64,000 nucleotides of DNA from Chloroflexota bacterium (GTDB taxonomy: Bacteria; Chloroflexota; Dormibacteria; Aeolococcales; Aeolococcaceae), in contig VBIQ01000006.1 of assembly GCA_005880985.1 (NCBI GenBank), positions 5,088-69,087 of the forward strand, read 5' to 3'. Below are positions 3,056-46,324 of this stretch, piece after piece (positions within the stretch are counted from its first letter, which is position 1; each line of letters begins with the position of its first letter). The translations under genes were made by a program, and so were the position numbers. The notes under the pieces were generated by a model, which ran no database searches, had not been told where the DNA came from, and was given only the letters and a program-made list of their open reading frames with translations.

Positions 3056-5488
3056 TCAGACGCGGCGGATCAGCTCGCGTTCCATCCGCTCGCGGGTGGC
3101 GACCACCAGCGAGTGCAGGGGGAGGTCCCGCACCGCCAGCTCCATCTGGCGCAGCATCGAGTAGAGGTTCTTGACCGCCTTGATGACATCGCCGAGGTCG
3201 GCGCCGGCCGGAGCCTCGATCTCGGCGAGCGGCGTCCCCAGCACCCACTGGTAGGCGGCATCGACGAAGTCGAGCGAGAGCGGCCGCAGCGTCTCCAGGC
3301 CCTGGTCGCGTTCCAGCGAGGCGAGCCGGAAGAGGGCGACGCGCAGGGTGCGATAGGCCTGTTCGATCCTCCCGGTGGGGAAACGATGGCGTCCGGCGGG
3401 GCGCTCTCGACCGCGATCCTCGGCGACCAGCATCACCAGGCTGGCGGCCAGCTCCTCGGGGCGCAGATCATCGAGCCATCCCTCGCGGATGGCACGCGCG
3501 ACCAGCAGTGCGTTCTCGCCGTAGAGCGACGCCGCCAGGGCGCCGAGCGCGGTGGGGCGATCGTGCTCGAGATACCCCCCCTCGTGGAGCACGGCGCGGA
3601 AGGCGCGAAACTCCTCCCGGTAGCGGTGGCGCGCCGACTCCAGCTCCTGCTCCCCGCCCGCCAGCGCCTCTTCCATCTCGTCGATGGCGAGATGGTTGGC
3701 CCGGTGCTCGCCGAAGTAGGGGCAGCGGCGGCAGGGACTGTCCGCCTGCCGCGCCTGCAGGCCCTTCATCTGCCGGCGCATCGCCTCGTAGCGCTGGCCG
3801 GGGTCGGCGCTGCGTCCCCCGTAGCGGCCACGACGGCTGTCGCGCCAGTGGTCGCGACGGGCGCGACGGAGCCGGGTCTGGATGGTGATCAGCTCCTCGC
3901 CGCCGTTCAGGTAGGACTCCAGGGTTCGCTCGGTGCAGGGGACCACCGGATGACGGAAGACCCGGGCGCGCAGGTCGGCAAGCCGCGAGCGAAGATTCTC
4001 CTCGCGGTGCACCCAGTTCTCGCCGCGTCGTAGCAGCTGATACTGGCCGAAGGAGCGCTCGAGCAGCAGCTCCGCCCGCTCGACGCTGCCGGTGCGCAGC
4101 AGGTTGAGGGTCATGGTGTAGGTCGGCGCGAACTTGCTCTCCACCGACATCTCTCCACCCATGGCGGCCTCATAGATGTCGCGGATGTCAACGTCGTGCT
4201 CCTTGAGGATGATCCCGTGCCCCAGGGTGTCGATGCCGCGGCGGCCGGCGCGGCCCATCAGCTGGGTGAGCTCGGCGCTGGTGAGCGCGTGGAAGCCGGT
4301 GCCGTCGAATTTGGTGAACGATGACACCACGCAGGCTCGGGCAGGCATGTTGAGGCCGAGAGAGAGCGTCTCGGTGGCGAAGACAACCTTGATCAGCCCG
4401 GTGAGGAAGAGTCGCTCGACCGTTTCCTTCGCATAGGGCAGCATGCCGGCGTGGTGCATCGCCACCCCGTTGCGCAGCAGGTCCCGGGGTAGCGCCTCGC
4501 GGTACACTGTTCGCTCGTCGTCATCGGCAACCGCCACCAGCCGCTCCTCGTAGAACTCTTCGATCCGCTTCTTCTCCGGCGCGGTGGTGAGGTCGATGCC
4601 GTGGACGGCGCATCGCGAGAGCGCCTCGCGGCATCCCCGCCTCGAGAAGATGAAGTAGATGGCGGGGACCATGTCCTGGCTCGACAGCTCCTCGACCACG
4701 TGGAGGAGGTCGTTGTCGGGAGCGCGCCGGGCGTATCGCATCCGCTCGTCGACGGCGTCCTGCCGGCGGGCCAGGTCGAGGGTGCGGCGGGAGGCGTGCC
4801 CCTCGCGGTCGAAGAGGGGATGAAAGCGGTTGTCGATCGCCAGCCAGAGACGCAGCTCCACCGGGCGCTCGGTGCGCATCACGATGCCCATCGGACCCCG
4901 AAGGCCGGTCATCCAGTCGGCCACCTCCTCGACGTTGCCGATGGTGGCGCTCAGTCCGATGAAGCGGATGTGGGGAGGCGCTTGGACGATCACCTCTTCC
5001 CAGACGGCCCCGCGGGGGTAGTCGTCGATGTAATGGATCTCGTCGAGGACCACGTCACCCACCAGGTCGAGGCGGCCGGGCTCGTCGTAGATGACGTTGC
5101 GCAGGATCTCGGTGGTCATCACCACCACCGGGGCACGGTCGTTGATGGTGTGCTCACCGGTCACCAGACCCACGTTGGCTTCGCCGTAGCGGTCGCGCAG
5201 GTCGTGGAACTTCTGATTGCTGAGCGCCTTCAGAGGAGTGGTGTAGACCACGTGGGTCGGTTCGGTGACCGCGCGACGCAGCTCGTGCGGGGCGGCGAGG
5301 CAGCGCCACACCGCGTATTCCGCGACCACCGTCTTTCCGCTGCTGGTGGGGGCGCTGACCAGGACGCCTCGGCGCTGCTCGAGCAGCCGCAGCGCCTCCA
5401 CCTGGAAGCCGTCGAGCGGCCATGGGAGAGTCGCCTGAAAGGCGGCGATCAGCTCGTCGACGCGCTCCCCGGTCGGGACCGCGGTCAC
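3056..5488 (-). CDS. helY: Ski2-like DEAD/DEAH-box ATP-dependent RNA helicase HelY
   Basis: Walker A APTSSGKT, DEIH box, SAT motif, helicase C domain and a Ski2/Mtr4-type C-terminal region. Start is a GTG preceded by GAGAGG, trimmed from the longer ORF. Confidence 0.85.
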   Translation of the reverse strand: MTAVPTGERVDELIAAFQATLPWPLDGFQVEALRLLEQRRGVLVSAPTSSGKTVVAEYAVWRCLAAPHELRRAVTEPTHVVYTTPLKALSNQKFHDLRDRYGEANVGLVTGEHTINDRAPVVVMTTEILRNVIYDEPGRLDLVGDVVLDEIHYIDDYPRGAVWEEVIVQAPPHIRFIGLSATIGNVEEVADWMTGLRGPMGIVMRTERPVELRLWLAIDNRFHPLFDREGHASRRTLDLARRQDAVDERMRYARRAPDNDLLHVVEELSSQDMVPAIYFIFSRRGCREALSRCAVHGIDLTTAPEKKRIEEFYEERLVAVADDDERTVYREALPRDLLRNGVAMHHAGMLPYAKETVERLFLTGLIKVVFATETLSLGLNMPARACVVSSFTKFDGTGFHALTSAELTQLMGRAGRRGIDTLGHGIILKEHDVDIRDIYEAAMGGEMSVESKFAPTYTMTLNLLRTGSVERAELLLERSFGQYQLLRRGENWVHREENLRSRLADLRARVFRHPVVPCTERTLESYLNGGEELITIQTRLRRARRDHWRDSRRGRYGGRSADPGQRYEAMRRQMKGLQARQADSPCRRCPYFGEHRANHLAIDEMEEALAGGEQELESARHRYREEFRAFRAVLHEGGYLEHDRPTALGALAASLYGENALLVARAIREGWLDDLRPEELAASLVMLVAEDRGRERPAGRHRFPTGRIEQAYRTLRVALFRLASLERDQGLETLRPLSLDFVDAAYQWVLGTPLAEIEAPAGADLGDVIKAVKNLYSMLRQMELAVRDLPLHSLVVATRERMERELIRRV

Positions 5489-5831: not shown

Positions 5832-7649
5832 GTGTCGACGACTGCGGCTGCGCCTCCCTCGATCTCCCTGGTGGAGCACTTCCGCCACCAGGTCGGCAGC
5901 CGGGCAGACCGGCCCGCGATGTACTTCCGGGCCGGCGGTCGCTGGGCCCCGATCACCTGGGGTCAGTTCGGCCAGGCCGCTCGCCGGATCACCGCCTACC
6001 TCGTCGACGAGGGCGTGGCGGAGCACGACCACGTCGCCGTCTGGTCGGGAAACCGCCCCGAATGGCACATCGCCGACGTTGCCATCCTCGCGGGGCGGAT
6101 GCGACCGGTGCCGCTGTACCTCACCGTCAGCGCCGAACAGGCGGGATACATCCTCGGTCACTCCGGGGCACGGGTTGCCGTGGTCGAGGCATGCGAGCAG
6201 CTCGACCGCCTCCTGCGGGAGCGCGACCGTCTACCGTCGCTGCAACGCGTGGTCGTCATCGAGGGGCTGGACGGCTCCTCGGACGACGGCTTCGTCATTC
6301 CCTGGGCGCTGGCGATGCAGCGAGGTGAGGCGGCGCTGGGCCCGCGTGCCGCGGAGGTCGACCGGCGAGCCAGAGCGGTGGGGCTCGATGACGTCGCCAC
6401 CCTCGTGTACACCAGCGGCACCACCGGACCACCCAAGGCGGTGGTGCTCACCCATCGCAACATCACCTCGGCGATCTCCAGCCTGTCGCAGATCGCCGCC
6501 GCCGAGGCCGACGATCGCATCCTCAGCTATCTGCCTCTGGCCCACATCGCCGAGCGGATGGCGAGCGAGTTCCGTCAGTACGTCTTCGGCAACGCCACCT
6601 GGTTCTCCAGCGGTCCGCAGAACCTCGCGTCCGAGCTCGGCGAGGTGCGGCCGACGATGTTCTTCGGCGTCCCCCGGGTGTGGGAGAAGATGGCGGCGCG
6701 GATCCGTGCCGGGCTGGATGAGGCCGGCGGTCTGCGCGGCCACCTGGGGCGCTGGGCGGTGCGCACCGGGGAGACGGTGGCGGGCGCCCGTGGGAGCGGA
6801 CGCGAGCCGGGTCCACTGCTTCGCGCCCGGTATCGCCTCGCCGATCGCCTGGTGCTGCGGCGGGTGCGCAGCGCCCTGGGACTCGACCAGGCACGCTACG
6901 TCGCCAGCGGGGCAGCACCCATCGCCGCCGATGTTCTCCGCCTCTTCGCCGCCCTGGGACTCGAGGTCCTCGAGATCTACGGGCAGACCGAGAACTGCGG
7001 CCTGACCAGTGTCAACCGGCCGGGACACAGTCGCATCGGGACGGTGGGTCCGCCCGCGCCCGACGTCGACGTCCGCCTCGACGGCGACGGCGAGATCCTG
7101 GTGCGCAGCGGCGCCGTCTTCGCCGGATACCACGGGGACGAGCAGGCGACCGCCGCGACCCTCGAGGACGGGTGGTTGCGCACCGGCGACATCGGTAGCC
7201 TCGACGCCGACGGCTACCTGCGCGTCATCGACCGCAAGAAGGATCTGATCATCACCTCGGGCGGGAAGAACATCGCACCGGGTGGGATCGAGAACGCGCT
7301 GCGGGAGCATCGTCTGGTCGAGCAGGCAGTGGTGATCGGCGACCGCCGCCCCTTCGTGACCGCACTGCTCACCCTCGATGCCGATGAGCTGATGGCAGTC
7401 GCGGCCGAGAACAATCTGCCGGCAGACCCCGCCACCCTGCGGGACAGCGCGGTGGTGCAGGCGGCCCTTCAGGCCCACGTCGACGCGGTGAACCGCCGTC
7501 TCTCCCAGGTCGAATCGGTCAAGCGTTGGACGGTGCTGCCTCGCGGATTTGCCATCGGCGAAGAGCTCACTCCGACGCTCAAGGTACGCCGCCGCATCGT
7601 CGAGGAACGCTACGCCGCCGAGATCGACGCCCTGTACGCCAGCGGCTGA
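5832..7649 (+). CDS. AMP-dependent synthetase/ligase (long-chain fatty-acid-CoA ligase, FadD-like)
   Basis: AMP-binding motif YTSGTTGPPKAVVLTHRN, then YGQTE, and a C-terminal ITSGGKNIAP...KVRRR. GTG start chosen to avoid overlap with the divergent DUF503 gene. Confidence 0.85.
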   Translation: MSTTAAAPPSISLVEHFRHQVGSRADRPAMYFRAGGRWAPITWGQFGQAARRITAYLVDEGVAEHDHVAVWSGNRPEWHIADVAILAGRMRPVPLYLTVSAEQAGYILGHSGARVAVVEACEQLDRLLRERDRLPSLQRVVVIEGLDGSSDDGFVIPWALAMQRGEAALGPRAAEVDRRARAVGLDDVATLVYTSGTTGPPKAVVLTHRNITSAISSLSQIAAAEADDRILSYLPLAHIAERMASEFRQYVFGNATWFSSGPQNLASELGEVRPTMFFGVPRVWEKMAARIRAGLDEAGGLRGHLGRWAVRTGETVAGARGSGREPGPLLRARYRLADRLVLRRVRSALGLDQARYVASGAAPIAADVLRLFAALGLEVLEIYGQTENCGLTSVNRPGHSRIGTVGPPAPDVDVRLDGDGEILVRSGAVFAGYHGDEQATAATLEDGWLRTGDIGSLDADGYLRVIDRKKDLIITSGGKNIAPGGIENALREHRLVEQAVVIGDRRPFVTALLTLDADELMAVAAENNLPADPATLRDSAVVQAALQAHVDAVNRRLSQVESVKRWTVLPRGFAIGEELTPTLKVRRRIVEERYAAEIDALYASG

Positions 7650-7671
7650 CAGTGCCGCTTGCGGCGGCTCG

Positions 7672-7980
7672 TCAGAGAACCGAGAGCAGCTTCTGCCGCA
7701 GCTCCTCGAGGCGTTCGAACTCCTCGACGGCGGGCTTGGGCGGAGTCTTCTGCTGACCGGGGAACTTCAGCCGCTGCAGGGCGTCGGCGATGGTCTGGAT
7801 CTCCTCGTCGCTGAGGCGGAGGAGCCGTCCCCCGGCGCTCGGCGGCGGCATGCGCGAGATCGGCGGGCTCCCCGTCGGATTGACCTGGCTGACCGGCTCG
7901 CGGTTGCGCTCTGCTTCCGCCTGGGTCGGGCGGAAGAGCTCATCCGAGCCACGCAGCTGGGCGCGGCGGAAGCCGGCCAT
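7672..7980 (-). CDS. Small ParA-coupled protein with an Arg-rich flexible N-terminus and a C-terminal ribbon-helix-helix-like segment (ParG-like adaptor candidate)
   Basis: 102-aa ORF whose ATG overlaps the parA stop (ATGA). GGAGG sits 7 nt upstream. N-terminus MAGFRRAQLRG; C-terminus RLLRLSDEEIQTIADALQRL, a beta-strand-plus-helix pattern like RHH proteins. Confidence 0.6.
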   Translation of the reverse strand: MAGFRRAQLRGSDELFRPTQAEAERNREPVSQVNPTGSPPISRMPPPSAGGRLLRLSDEEIQTIADALQRLKFPGQQKTPPKPAVEEFERLEELRQKLLSVL

Positions 7981-8768
7981 CAACCCGCCTCCGCGGCCAC
8001 CGCGTCGGTGGCCATCACCGCGGCCGCCAGTTCGCGATATGCCTTGGCCCCGGGTGATGCAGCGGCGTACTGGAGGATCGACTGGCCCTCGATGGGACAC
8101 TCGGCGAAGCGAATGCTGGCGTCGACCCGGACGGCGAAGACCTGCTCGCCATAGTGCTCGCGCACCAGCTCCAGCACGTCCTGGCTGTGCAGGGTGCGCG
8201 CCTTGTAGATGGTCGGCAGGATGCCGGCGATGCGCAGGCGCGGATTCAGCTTGGCACGGACCCGGTCGATGGTGCGCTGCAACTGCTGCATCCCCTTCAT
8301 CCCGAAGTACTCGCACTGCAGCGGAATGATCACCTCGGTCGCCGCCACCAGCGCGTTGATGCTCAGCAGGCCCAGTGAGGGCGGGCAGTCGATGACCATA
8401 AAGTCGTAGTCGTCGAGAACGGGTTCGAGCTTGTCGGTGAGCACGCTCTCGCGACCGATCTCGCTGGCCAACTGCATCTCTGCACCGCTCAGCTCGATGT
8501 TGGCAGGGAGGAAGTCGACCCCGATCTTGTCGGCGTGGAGTCGCACATCCTCGACCGCCACCTGCGAATTGGTGAGCAGGTCGTACACGGTCAGCTCGAG
8601 GTCGTCGGGCCGGCGCACCCCCATGTTGATGGTGAGGTGACCCTGGGGGTCGAGGTCGATGCAGAGCAGGCGCTGGCCTGCTTCCGCCAGCGCGCCCGCG
8701 AGGCTCACCGCCGTGGTGGTCTTTCCCACACCGCCTTTCTGGTTGGCGATGGCGAGGACGCGAGTCAT
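7980..8768 (-). CDS. parA: ParA/Soj-family partition ATPase (small, with no N-terminal HTH extension)
   Basis: Deviant Walker A NQKGGVGKTTTAV, Walker A' CIDLDPQ, Walker B VIDCPPSLG. 262 aa. Confidence 0.9.
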   Translation of the reverse strand: MTRVLAIANQKGGVGKTTTAVSLAGALAEAGQRLLCIDLDPQGHLTINMGVRRPDDLELTVYDLLTNSQVAVEDVRLHADKIGVDFLPANIELSGAEMQLASEIGRESVLTDKLEPVLDDYDFMVIDCPPSLGLLSINALVAATEVIIPLQCEYFGMKGMQQLQRTIDRVRAKLNPRLRIAGILPTIYKARTLHSQDVLELVREHYGEQVFAVRVDASIRFAECPIEGQSILQYAAASPGAKAYRELAAAVMATDAVAAEAG

Positions 8769-8934
8769 CGGGCCGCCGAACAGATGCGCTCCACCGAGCC
8801 GGTATCATACCGCTCCCGTCGCGGCGCAACCGTGATGGGACGAAGTTGCCGGGCCGTCCTGGGGCAGCTGCCTGCGCCATCCTTATGTGGCGGTGATGTG
8901 TCGACCGGCAGACGCTGCCGGAAGCGGGTCCAAC

Positions 8935-9828
8935 ATGGAGTTCGAGGTGGCTGAAGCCGAGCGGGTCAAGCCGCGCGCGATGTACGTCGAGGAGGCCATC
9001 CAGCTGGCGCTCGACAGCCGCTGGAGCGAGGCGGCGGCGATCAATCGCACCATCCTCGACCACTACGGCCCCGACGAGGACGCGTACAACCGCCTCGGCA
9101 AGGCGCTCTACGAACTCGGCCAGCTTCAGGAGGCGCTCGACGCCTACTCGGAGACGCTCAAGCTCAATCCGCTCAACCTCATCGCCCAGAAGAACACCCG
9201 CAAGCTCACCGCCCAGCTCGAGGCGCCGAGCCGCGTCGAGGGTCAGGCGAGCGCGATCGACGTCGATCTCTTCACCGAGGAGCCGGGAAAGAGCGGGCTC
9301 AGCGTGCTCGCGCCGCCCAGCGGTGGCGTCACCATCACCGTCGCTCCCGGCGACGCCGTCGAGCTGGAACCGCGGGGCACCGCGCTCGCAGCGCGCACCG
9401 TGCGCGGGGTCGAACTCGGCGAGGTCGAGGCCAAGCTGAAGCGCCGCCTGCTTCCCCTGATGGCCGCCGGCAACCGCTACGCCGCCGCGGTGGCCCGGGT
9501 CGAGGACCAGCGCATTGAGATCATGATCCGGGAGACCTACCAGTCCCCCGAGAACGCCCGGAAGTCCTCCTTCCCGATCGCCCGCGGCTCCCGCCGCGAA
9601 GAGTTCCGCCCCTACGCGAAGGAATCGCTCCTCGGCGAGCGCGGCAGCGATCTCGACCTCGAGCTCGCCGGCGAGGAGGACTCCTTCAATGTCCCCGGCG
9701 GCGGCGACGAGCCCGAGGAGGAGCTCGACGGCATGCAGACCGTCGGCGAAGACCTCGACGAGGCGGGCGGCTTCGAGGTGGAGGAGGAGCCCGAGGACGA
9801 GGACGAACGCCCCGAGGACAACTACTAG
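8935..9828 (+). CDS. TPR-repeat protein with a highly acidic C-terminal tail
   Basis: N-terminal TPR-like helices (EEAIQLALDSRWSEAAAINRTILDHYGPDEDAYNRLGKALYELGQLQEALDAYSETLKLNP). The last roughly 70 aa are D/E-rich. Divergent from parA. Confidence 0.6.
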   Translation: MEFEVAEAERVKPRAMYVEEAIQLALDSRWSEAAAINRTILDHYGPDEDAYNRLGKALYELGQLQEALDAYSETLKLNPLNLIAQKNTRKLTAQLEAPSRVEGQASAIDVDLFTEEPGKSGLSVLAPPSGGVTITVAPGDAVELEPRGTALAARTVRGVELGEVEAKLKRRLLPLMAAGNRYAAAVARVEDQRIEIMIRETYQSPENARKSSFPIARGSRREEFRPYAKESLLGERGSDLDLELAGEEDSFNVPGGGDEPEEELDGMQTVGEDLDEAGGFEVEEEPEDEDERPEDNY

Positions 9829-9978
9829 AGGGCGCCCTTGTCGGCCTCGGGGGCGGGTGCACGGCGCCTTGGCCGATTCGCCTCGGGTCTCCCAGAGGCG
9901 AGAGCTGCTTGGCCGCTGGTCGGAGGCAATTTAAATACATTCTTGACTGCATGTATCATTGAGTGGTACAACCCGGCG

Positions 9979-10611
9979 ATGGTCACCGCAGCCCCCCGCC
10001 GAACCCAGGCGGAGCGCAGCGCCTCGACCCAGGCCCGCCTCCTGGACGCCACCGTGGAGTGCGTCGCGGAGCTGGGCTACCAGCGCACCACCACCACCGA
10101 GGTTGCCCGTCGGGCCGGCTTGACCCGTGGTGCTCAGCTCCACCACTTCGGCAGCAAGGCGGAACTGGTGACCAGCGCGCTCGCCCATCTCCATCAGCGG
10201 TACGACGCGGAGTTCCGGGCGGCCATGGCTGAGGTCAAGGCTGCCGGTGGCAATCCGCTGGAGGCCGCGGTCGACGTCATGTGGGGGCTGTACTCCACCC
10301 CCAGGCGGACGGCTTGGATGGAGCTCAGCGTTGCTGCCCGAACCGATCCCGAGCTGCGCAGCCGTATGGCCGAACTCCAGCGACAGTTCATGGCGAGCGC
10401 GCGCGAGACCTTCGCGGAGCTGTTCCCCGAAGCGGCGGCGGATCCGGAGTTCTCAATCGCTCCGTTGTTCACCTTCACGGTCCTCGACGGCCTCGCGCTG
10501 TGCCAGGCCGTGTCCCATGACGAGACCGAGGTACGCGCCGTTCTCGAGGCACTCAAGGCTGTCTCACGTCTCTTTGCGCCAGTCGACGCTGCCACCGGAG
10601 GAAGGAAGTGA
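9979..10611 (+). CDS. TetR family transcriptional regulator
   Basis: N-terminal HTH (RTTTTEVARRAGLTRGAQLHHFGSKAELV). ATG sits downstream of an AT-rich palindrome. The stop overlaps the next gene's start. Confidence 0.85.
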   Translation: MVTAAPRRTQAERSASTQARLLDATVECVAELGYQRTTTTEVARRAGLTRGAQLHHFGSKAELVTSALAHLHQRYDAEFRAAMAEVKAAGGNPLEAAVDVMWGLYSTPRRTAWMELSVAARTDPELRSRMAELQRQFMASARETFAELFPEAAADPEFSIAPLFTFTVLDGLALCQAVSHDETEVRAVLEALKAVSRLFAPVDAATGGRK

Positions 10612-11573
10612 GCACGATGGTGACCCCTCTCGCAGAGGAGCAGTCCGGCACCTGGGACAACTTGCTGGAGCGGTTGAACCGCCAATCGGTGCTCAAGCAC
10701 TTCGACGCCTACGTGGATGTGCCCTGGGATGAGCCCGGGTTCAGCATCGATCCGGCCGACTCGCGATGGCAGTTAGAGCCAGACCATCCCCTGGGTGCCA
10801 CCGACTGGTATCGGTCTCAACCCGCTGAAGTGCGGTCGCGAATCGGATTGCACATGATTGCCACTCAGATGAAGCTGGGTCTGCAGTTCGAGAGCGTTCT
10901 CAAGCGCGGACTGCTCGAATGGGCAGCGGATCTGCCCAATGGATCGGCGGCGTTCCGCTACGCGTACCACGAGGTGATCGAGGAAGCGCAGCATTCGCTG
11001 ATGTTCCAGGAGTTCGTCAATCGTGCCGGGTTCGACACTCCCGGCCTCTCGCGATTCTTGCGCTTCCAGGCACGTCAGGTCATCCGCCTGGGACGCAAGT
11101 TCCCCGAATTGTTCTTCGTGTTCGTGCTCGGCGGTGAGGATCCCATCGACCACGTCCAGCGAGTCGCGCTCCGGAACGGCGACTCACATCCATTACTGCT
11201 CCGCATCATGCGTATCCACGTCACCGAGGAGGCACGGCACCTGTCCTTCGCACGCCAGTACCTCAGGGATCGAGTGCCTCAGCTGAGCTGGCTGCGCCGG
11301 CAGCGGCTGGCGATCAACGCACCATTGATCCTTGGCGTGATGGCGCAGACGATGATGCAGCCGTCGCCGCAGATGGTGAAGGAGTACGGAATCCCGCGCT
11401 CAGTGATCCGTGCCGCCTACAAGGACAACCCGCGATATCGCCAGCAGGTGCTCGATTCGCTGCGTAAGGTCCGAGAGTTGCTGATCGAGCTGCGGCTGAT
11501 GACACCGATGACCCGGCCGATCTGGCGCCGGCTGCGAATCTGGGAGGCTGGCGCCACGGAGACCGCTGCCTAG
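10608..11573 (+). CDS. Diiron oxygenase of the AurF-like (p-aminobenzoate N-oxygenase-like) family
   Basis: Two ExxH motifs (EEAQHSLMFQE and TEEARHLSF) spaced as in AurF-type diiron carboxylate proteins. Translationally coupled to the TetR gene. Confidence 0.65.
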   Translation: MSTMVTPLAEEQSGTWDNLLERLNRQSVLKHFDAYVDVPWDEPGFSIDPADSRWQLEPDHPLGATDWYRSQPAEVRSRIGLHMIATQMKLGLQFESVLKRGLLEWAADLPNGSAAFRYAYHEVIEEAQHSLMFQEFVNRAGFDTPGLSRFLRFQARQVIRLGRKFPELFFVFVLGGEDPIDHVQRVALRNGDSHPLLLRIMRIHVTEEARHLSFARQYLRDRVPQLSWLRRQRLAINAPLILGVMAQTMMQPSPQMVKEYGIPRSVIRAAYKDNPRYRQQVLDSLRKVRELLIELRLMTPMTRPIWRRLRIWEAGATETAA

Positions 11574-45649: not shown

Positions 45650-46324
45650 GTGATCGTGCCGGCGGAGCGACTCGACCTCTGGCTCGCCGGCTTCGCGGAG
45701 CGACACGGCTCTCTGCAGTGGACGGCCACGCCGGAGCAGGTGGTGGTGACCGGTGCCGACGGATGCACCGCCGAGTGCGAGGTGCCGTTCCCACCGCTTG
45801 CGCCGGATGAGGGCGCTCCGTTCGCTGGTCTGGTCGCGCACGCGTGCGCGGAGCGCAGCGTCGGGGTGGTGCTGGTCCGCCTGGGGGGCTACGCGGTCGG
45901 GGTGTTCCGTCGGTCGCAGCTGGTCGCCTCCAAGGTGGGATCGCGCCCGGTCCACGGCCGCGCCGCCGCCGGCGGCTGGTCGCAGAAGCGATTCGCCCGC
46001 CGGCGCGAGGGACAGGCGCGCGTCGCCCTCGAGGCCGCGGCGGACGCGGCCGCGCGTGTCGTGGCTCCGGTTGCCGGCAGCCTCGATGCCGTCGTCACCG
46101 GCGGAGACCGCCACGCGGTGGAGGCGGTGCTCGGCGACGCGCGTCTCGGGGTCCTGCTTCCGCTGCGGGCCGGCCGCCTGCTCGACGTGCCGGAGCCGAG
46201 GCAGAGGACGCTTGCGGAGGTGTTTCGGCGGAGCAGCGCGGTGCGCATTCGCATCGTCGAATCGCCGCTTCACCGGCACGGCAAGGAGAAGGAGGAGGAG
46301 CAGCCGCCGCAACACGAAATGTGA
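45650..46324 (+). CDS. eRF1/Vms1-like release-factor-fold protein (acVLRF1-like, putative peptidyl-tRNA hydrolase)
   Basis: 224 aa with GGWSQKRFARRREGQ. This has a GxxQ catalytic-loop pattern followed by an RFAR motif, as in eRF1 (GGQSALRFARL) and Vms1/ANKZF1. Basic C-terminal tail. Confidence 0.5.
   Translation: MIVPAERLDLWLAGFAERHGSLQWTATPEQVVVTGADGCTAECEVPFPPLAPDEGAPFAGLVAHACAERSVGVVLVRLGGYAVGVFRRSQLVASKVGSRPVHGRAAAGGWSQKRFARRREGQARVALEAAADAAARVVAPVAGSLDAVVTGGDRHAVEAVLGDARLGVLLPLRAGRLLDVPEPRQRTLAEVFRRSSAVRIRIVESPLHRHGKEKEEEQPPQHEM

Follow-up and report, generated by a model that had tools for sequence, protein, structure and literature searches.

We analysed a 64,000-nucleotide stretch of DNA from a soil-dwelling member of the uncultured phylum Candidatus Dormibacterota, whose metagenome-assembled genome NCBI labels 'Chloroflexi bacterium' and which GTDB places in Chloroflexota, class Dormibacteria (contig VBIQ01000006.1 of assembly GCA_005880985.1, forward-strand positions 5,088 to 69,087; hereafter the window), and concentrated on a chromosomal parA gene that is followed directly by the gene for a 102-aa protein, here called the partner. 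Strong comparative evidence supports the partner as the putative adaptor of this orphan ParA, and, judging from homologue searches, the partner family is confined to Candidatus Dormibacterota and previously undescribed. We favour, with moderate confidence, a chromosomal two-protein positioning module in which a Soj-type ParA works with a dedicated, dimeric, activating adaptor, both encoded in one operon with a short upstream open reading frame (uORF). This module is a phylum-restricted variant of the well-known ParA-plus-partner theme, and it is the partner family that is new.

The first-pass annotation, made from the letters of the window, had described a 102-aa open reading frame (ORF) with the N-terminus MAGFRRAQLRGS and an RLLRLS segment; both were recovered in the translated partner, MAGFRRAQLRGSDELFRPT...RLLRLSDEEIQTIADALQRLKFP...EEFERLEELRQKLLSVL. 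The GC content at third codon positions (GC3) of the partner ORF is 0.89, as compared to 0.88 for parA, and a GGAGG lies 7 nt upstream of the partner ATG. A word-indexed search returned 186 homologous clusters, those listed being ~94-113 aa long and those with a source name all being called 'hypothetical protein'. Searching 1.84 billion cluster representatives with a hidden Markov model (HMM) yielded 61 homologues, all small (42-174 aa), and 164 relatives emerged when GTDB species were surveyed at one genome each. From these 164 we kept the loci of 80, which come from Dormibacterota or from otherwise-labelled metagenome-assembled genomes (MAGs) with the same synteny; the full comparative set comprised 87 related loci (L numbers below), in which a single MAG is represented twice, by the duplicate contigs L068 and L069. 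No homologue was found in the plasmid collection, and neither Pfam nor NCBIfam matched the window partner. Across 38 family members, Pfam produced three weak Myb matches only, which fit a generic helix N-cap pattern.

In nearly all 87 loci a ParA is encoded immediately upstream of the partner. The two genes had been annotated as overlapping by ATGA in the window; the junction, GGGTTGATGGCC, reads TGATG instead, the TGA (7982-7980) and the ATG (7980-7978) sharing 1 nt. This TGATG arrangement recurs in 37 loci, and also, by eye, in six further loci that were script-counted as +2, whilst overlaps of 4 or 8 nt are present in 11 and most others lie within 15 nt of each other. With 186 clusters and this overlap pattern across related loci, the earlier claim of a conserved small ORF tightly coupled to ParA holds. 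A GC-rich genome contains many spurious long ORFs, and the partner could in principle be a chance or non-functional ORF behind an orphan ParA; however, the invariant residues and in-frame length differences seen among the clusters, a gene-like GC3, and a position and start/stop coupling conserved in >70 loci effectively refute this reading and leave it a negligible probability.

Partner homologues were also observed in records titled Candidatus Angelobacter, Acidiferrales, Solibacter, Acidoferrum and 'uncultured Actinomycetes' (L014, L021, L045, L051, L068/L069 and L087). These taxonomic labels are probably wrong; two of the loci, L014 and L021, display the full hisZ-TPR-parA-partner-fadD-DUF503-helY synteny.

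The ParA of the window is a nucleoid-binding, Soj-type ATPase. As first annotated, it is a short form of 262 aa without an N-terminal helix-turn-helix, its Walker A motif (KGGVGKT, residues 11-17) beginning at residue 11. It carries the deviant Walker A KGGxGK[ST] of chromosomal Soj-type proteins, with the signature Lys K11 and the Walker A K16, the Motif 2 aspartates D38/D40 and the DNA-binding Arg R220, and has no membrane-targeting helix: ParA C-terminal tails (e.g. ...AVMATDAVAAEAG), judged by reading the sequence, are not amphipathic in the manner of membrane-targeting sequences. None of 79 Dormibacterota orthologues departs from K11, K16, D38, D40, H44, E92, L132, R169, L174 or R220, and all but one of them have Y62. 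The best solved relative in a PDB search was the chromosomal ParA of Myxococcus xanthus (8RAY, 3.6e-63, 43% identity), and the ParA-like protein of Mycobacterium smegmatis (4PFS) and Soj of Thermus thermophilus (1WCV) are 48% and 49% identical, respectively. E values against chromosomal ParA/Soj proteins range from 1e-58 to 1e-63, as compared to 1e-16 against McdA, and neither a ParF chain nor a SegA/SegB chain was among the 15 PDB matches at E <= 1e-10. The nearest match in the plasmid collection, with 50% identity, turned out to be of chromosomal origin, an actinobacterial gene located in a xerD-parA-scpA-scpB cluster.

The residues of M. xanthus ParA that bind the ParB N-terminal peptide have been mapped experimentally (PMC12462528). 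Both the hydrophobic pocket for this peptide and the Arg-binding site are largely retained in the window ParA (Y62, D63, E92, M98, L132, G133, L134, I137 and L174), and R220 is the equivalent of the non-specific DNA-binding Arg (R238 in M. xanthus, R189 in Bacillus subtilis). Superimposed on this conserved outline are lineage-specific changes: H44 replaces the usual Motif 2 Asn (N64 in M. xanthus) and R169 replaces the pocket Leu (L187), both without exception in the 79 orthologues, and Q99 replaces E117 in most of them. A pocket kept in outline with such changes is what we would expect if a different peptide bound the same site.

The one Soj-type hallmark that we did not find is an adjacent ParB/Spo0J with parS, sought in the window and, for ParB, also in the 87 loci. 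With three hand-entered ParB sequences as queries, tblastn matched neither the window nor the ~0.8 Mb of related loci; a scan of the window and the 87 loci for GERRxRA revealed four matching stretches only, within Arg-rich reading frames judged non-coding; and no parS was found in the window. On these three lines the first-pass view that the window lacks a Spo0J-type ParB stands. PADLOC returned only weak P-loop matches for ParA, and a literature search on ParB in Dormibacterota gave nothing usable.

We then compared partner sequences in two alignments, A1, of 27 closely related family members, and A2, of 38 more diverse ones. In both, the protein begins with a near-invariant peptide of consensus M-x-x-F-[KR]-R-x-[SQ]-L-x-G-S-x-E-L-F-R-P-T, followed by a length-variable, Pro/Ala-rich linker of ~25-60 residues and a C-terminal domain of ~50 residues. 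The latter reads h-x-h-x-L-[ST]-x-x-E-h-x-x-L-h-x-A-h-Q-x-x-K-[FY]-P (h, hydrophobic), then 6-9 residues, then K-P-[SP]-h-x-E-[FY]-E-x-L-E-x-L-R-x-K-L. AlphaFold2, run with the family alignment, modelled the partner at a mean predicted local distance difference test (pLDDT) score of 68, with the N-terminus and linker disordered and two helices at residues 58-72 and 85-101 (pLDDT 79-86), between which lies a Pro-rich loop with the invariant K-[FY]-P. The alignments and the model agree with the annotated ParA-partner type of architecture, a basic disordered N-terminal peptide joined to a folded C-terminal domain.

A possible dimer was modelled in tandem, as two partner copies in one chain with the second copy's disordered half as linker, from a single sequence. 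The best model reached a pLDDT of 64, the other four ~46, and contained strands at residues 51-56 and 154-159; with no other strand present, these two can only be paired to one another. Within the strand, positions 54 and 56 are hydrophobic and 53 and 55 polar or basic, R55 being invariant in the close clade. This model weakly suggests a strand-helix-helix unit that would dimerise via a two-stranded ribbon, the topology of ribbon-helix-helix (RHH) proteins. A sequence-profile search of the PDB with the partner returned nothing, and hhalign gave probabilities of <= 0.1% against ParG and CopG (hand-entered comparison sequences).

The partner was also considered as a ParB/Spo0J or a truncated ParB, and this was rejected: it has no Pfam match, hhalign against an alignment of three hand-entered ParB sequences gave 0.2%, and its peptide resembles the ParB motif LGRGLxxLI only partly. 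The conserved basic residues of the partner peptide are K/R5 and R6, with no conserved central Arg, and we regard the peptide as apparently analogous, not homologous, to that of ParB.

Upstream of parA, the 13-bp palindrome CGGTATCATACCG noted by the first-pass annotation is present, although its symmetry is that of 6-bp arms around an unpaired central base. This is the sole exact copy in the window, where all other matches need 2 mismatches, and across ~877 kb (window plus the 87 related loci) sequences with <= 1 mismatch are found only upstream of parA. The same annotation had entertained a centromere-like site and had itself named a single occurrence as what would speak against it; with one copy found in the window, that suggestion falls. 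A repeat search around the locus recovered chance-level pairs only and no repeat array, and an Rfam scan of positions 7400-9200 found nothing. Comparison of 36 distinct upstream sequences from orthologous loci revealed a conserved TAT[GC]ATA followed by a further conserved block. Perfect palindrome flanks, CCGGTATGATACCGG or a subset of it, are seen in the window, L005, L008 and L039, a compensatory variant, CCGCTATCATAGCGG, in L006 and L018, and a C.C mismatch in the arms at most orthologous loci.

A start codon (GTG in 27 cases, ATG in one) follows the conserved -10-like hexamer (TATGAT/TATCAT) after 9 nt in 28 of the 36 upstream sequences and opens a uORF of 9-19 codons. In 24 of 33 cases this uORF ends in a TGA that shares bases with the start codon of parA (NTGA), and these 24 overlaps span six leader lengths (26, 29, 32, 35, 50 and 56 nt), all of them 2 mod 3. 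The remaining nine uORFs stop 7-21 nt before parA, several of them followed by a purine-rich stretch. The uORF is probably the first cistron of the operon, leaderless and coupled to parA, and the palindrome most likely marks the -10 region of a promoter, not a centromere. In the distant clade (L044-L087) parA begins 10-14 nt beyond a conserved GTTAGACTCG, which contains a -10-like TAGACT, and the divergent CvpA-like gene of these loci is preceded by a TAGAAT at about the same spacing. It would appear that 5' leaders in the phylum are commonly very short or missing altogether. The uORF is conserved in L005-L043, with products beginning MERICS.., MRRVCS.. or MRRSRL...

Could the palindrome instead be an operator or centromere-like site bound by the partner or by ParA, with autoregulation as in type Ib par operons? 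We consider this unlikely. The inverted repeat does overlap the -10, its arms vary in a compensatory manner in two lineages (CCGGTAT.ATACCGG vs CCGCTAT.ATAGCGG), and three distant-clade loci (L044, L046 and L052) have another inverted repeat, TCTAC-GG-GTAGA, over their own -10. However, there is one copy per locus and none elsewhere in the window and 87 loci, most orthologous sites carry the arm mismatch, and what is conserved is TAT[GC]ATA with the downstream uORF start rather than a symmetrical site, TATGATA being self-complementary anyway. An operator overlapping the -10 is, in our estimate, improbable.

For the favoured module, these observations allow a mechanism to be proposed. The N-terminus through which ParA/MinD partners act is, as a rule, disordered and positively charged (PMC10241942), and in the small dimeric proteins SegB and ParG an N-terminal tail does the activating while the body is of the RHH type (PMC8682754). 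We posit that residues 1-19 of the partner would bind the ParA dimer at the ParB-peptide site and stimulate ATP hydrolysis, the flexible Pro/Ala linker joining this peptide to the C-terminal domain. Dimerisation of the strand-helix-helix domain would present two peptides per ParA dimer, there being precedent that efficient ParA stimulation requires two peptides held together, and the same domain would attach the cargo. Our first guess for this cargo is DNA, contacted via an RHH-like ribbon as in ParG or SegB, with protein cargo nearly as likely. Expression would be from a near-leaderless operon of uORF, parA and partner gene in which each stop overlaps the next start, TATGAT serving as -10 and transcription starting at or just before the uORF GTG.

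Several points weigh against this scheme. The RHH-like ribbon appeared in one of the five single-sequence tandem models, the partner C-terminal domain has a mean net charge of about -0.9, and its inter-helix loop, Pro-rich and 12 residues long, is unlike that of canonical RHH proteins. Even in the close clade the partner peptide agrees with only ~4 of the 6 key positions that define the ParB motif (L-G-R-G-L-x-x-L-I), and its central basic residue, R10, is not kept in the distant clade; the link from peptide to ParA is predicted from sequence and by analogy. No repeated candidate binding sites were found near the operon. A strict scan for sigma-70 promoters and terminators was negative and gave no promoter, so that the promoter call rests on conservation and position.

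Set beside chromosomal ParABS systems, the window ParA is 43-49% identical to ParA/Soj (8RAY, 1WCV) over the whole protein and shares with them the deviant Walker A signature Lys, the Motif 2 Asp, the DNA-binding Arg and most of the ParB-peptide pocket. It differs in the Motif 2 Asn to His and L187 to Arg changes (both invariant) and the predominant E117 to Gln change, in having a 102-aa partner without ParB domains in place of ParB, and in that parA is not beside parB and no parS was seen in the window. The actinobacterial orphan ParA-like proteins (PldP/Rv1708 class, encoded in xerD-parA-scpAB clusters; M. smegmatis 4PFS) are 48-50% identical and likewise chromosomal without an adjacent ParB; their genes, however, are followed by scpA/scpB or by nothing, and, whilst the ParA has relatives in actinobacteria, the partner homologue was not found outside Dormibacterota.

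Two kinds of neighbouring gene bear on the question of cargo. The gene divergent from parA encodes a TPR protein whose C-terminal tail is strongly acidic, and this gene remains the divergent neighbour throughout the closer clade, though the genes beyond it vary; it does not occupy the parA-adjacent position in the distant clade. Family searches with it gave generic TPR matches only, and among the best 120 matches listed for it every source name was that of a Dormibacterota or mislabelled-MAG record. Its link to the ParA module is conjectural. Four loci, each from a different MAG, have a paralogue of the partner, with the N-terminal peptide kept and no adjacent ParA; two of these MAGs yielded the ParA-linked copy as well, the two copies being 46-48% identical. 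The paralogue gene lies directly downstream of that for a 511-670-aa membrane protein with motifs resembling those of family 2 glycosyltransferases (GT2; VIPTYTEP, DLDSD, EDSRF and QIKRWAWG), to which Pfam gave no match, and polysaccharide flippase, sugar-transferase and cytochrome b/Rieske genes are found nearby. There are hints here that a single ParA may serve two or more adaptors, and the context of the paralogue hints at protein cargo.

Two readings of the cargo were weighed. A tentative possibility is DNA partition of the SegAB or type Ib kind, in which the partner would be an RHH centromere-binding protein and ParA would segregate the chromosome or a region of it, possibly replacing ParB. 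As in SegAB and ParF/ParG (also delta/omega), a ParA-family ATPase is followed by a small partner, in Dormibacterota a predicted dimer, and the unstructured N-terminus of ParG and SegB activates the ATPase (PMC8682754); the likeness to SegAB is one of architecture, taken from that published description. The ATPase is Soj-type with its DNA-binding Arg conserved, the partner C-terminal half is modelled to begin with a strand followed by helices, the strands paired in the pseudo-dimer model, and outward strand positions are polar or basic (R55 in the close clade, R/Q/N/H elsewhere). Conservation of the module across the phylum and the lack of a ParB match in the window and related loci point the same way. 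On the other hand, unlike ParG/CopG RHH proteins, the partner has no detectable RHH match by HMM, sequence or fold and has a long Pro-rich inter-helix loop; its C-terminal domain lacks a basic character; repeat arrays, centromere repeats beside the operon and extra palindrome copies were not found; and a paralogue beside a membrane glycosyltransferase-like gene suggests a cargo other than DNA. Membership of type Ib proper, as the first-pass annotation had proposed, is contradicted by the Soj-type rather than ParF- or SegA-type ATPase, the missing ParF chain and centromere array, and the housekeeping context. Unlike plasmid type Ib and archaeal SegAB systems, the Dormibacterota module is bacterial and chromosomal, with a partner that is not on plasmids.

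The other reading, which we regard as somewhat doubtful, is McdAB-like positioning of a protein cargo, where the C-terminal domain would bind a protein assembly that ParA distributes over the nucleoid; this assembly might be the TPR protein encoded next to parA, a synthase complex for envelope or polysaccharide, or a division factor. Like McdA/McdB, the module pairs a ParA-family ATPase with a small, partly disordered adaptor with a charged N-terminus. In its favour are the TPR gene kept beside parA throughout the closer clade despite variable flanks, the four loci in which the paralogue with the same N-terminal peptide sits directly 3' of the GT2-like gene, and a partner C-terminal domain that is neutral to acidic. 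The TPR gene is, however, not adjacent in the distant clade, and the resemblance to McdAB itself is slight. McdB has a conserved C-terminal Trp; the partner has no Trp or other McdB-like feature, no carboxysome or RuBisCO genes are near, and the window ParA has a signature Lys, unlike McdA, to which its similarity is weak (1e-16). The annotated McdA/McdB membership is consequently not upheld. More speculatively, Dormibacterota may lack ParB, with ParA and its partner acting as a minimal, CTP-independent, SegAB-like machinery for chromosome segregation in the phylum, whose paralogous adaptor could let ParA position a membrane glycosyltransferase complex; we view this combination as a long shot.

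ParA/MinD ATPases organise chromosomes, plasmids, organelles and division sites, and it is the partner that decides what is positioned; many ParAs are called orphan because the partner is unrecognised. Here, a phylum-wide candidate family of ParA partners emerged from sequence alone in an uncultured lineage. A delimited candidate peptide together with matching changes in the ParA pocket would make a clean test case for the evolution of partner specificity. If ParB were absent from these genomes, a bacterial phylum would be segregating its DNA by a minimal, ParB-free system.

Table 1 Coordinates of the parA-partner locus in the window, and of the partner paralogue in related loci.
Feature	Position	Strand	Description
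parA	7980..8768	minus	262-aa Soj-type ParA/MinD-family ATPase; Pfam AAA_31 3.5e-59
Partner gene	7672..7980	minus	102-aa protein directly after ParA; no Pfam or NCBIfam match
Partner codons 1-19	7924..7980	minus	Near-invariant peptide M-x-G-F-R-R-A-Q-L-R-G-S-D-E-L-F-R-P-T; alignments A1 and A2
Partner codons 51-102	7675..7830	minus	Conserved C-terminal domain; AlphaFold2 monomer, AlphaFold2 tandem pseudo-dimer and conservation
uORF	8765..8794	minus	GTG, 8 codons and TGA (VERICSAAR*); stop overlaps parA ATG as ATGA
Palindrome CGGTAT-C-ATACCG	8800..8812	none	13 bp; minus strand carries TATGAT (8809..8804)
TPR gene	8935..9828	plus	297 aa, divergent from parA; alternative GTG start at 8887; Pfam TPR_1/TPR_2
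Partner paralogue	L048 2738-3025; L053 614-892; L055 1756-2043; L056 6001-6288		

The coordinates of the locus are collected in Table 1. The surroundings are housekeeping and non-plasmid in character, as had been annotated: the window contains a his operon with a HisZ-like gene, arg biosynthesis genes, lysS, greA, dus and coaX, along with genes for UDG, a HelY-like helicase, DUF503 and an acyl-CoA ligase. At 9838-11573 (plus strand), genes for a TetR regulator and an AurF-like N-oxygenase separate the TPR gene from hisZ, in this lineage only; in other Dormibacterota (L005, L006) this position is taken by an NYN-domain gene or an asparaginase gene. Further along the window, the gene at 45650-46324 (plus strand) belongs to the VLRF1-like family of release factors known from Actinobacteria/Chloroflexi (acVLRF1 / baeRF family 10).

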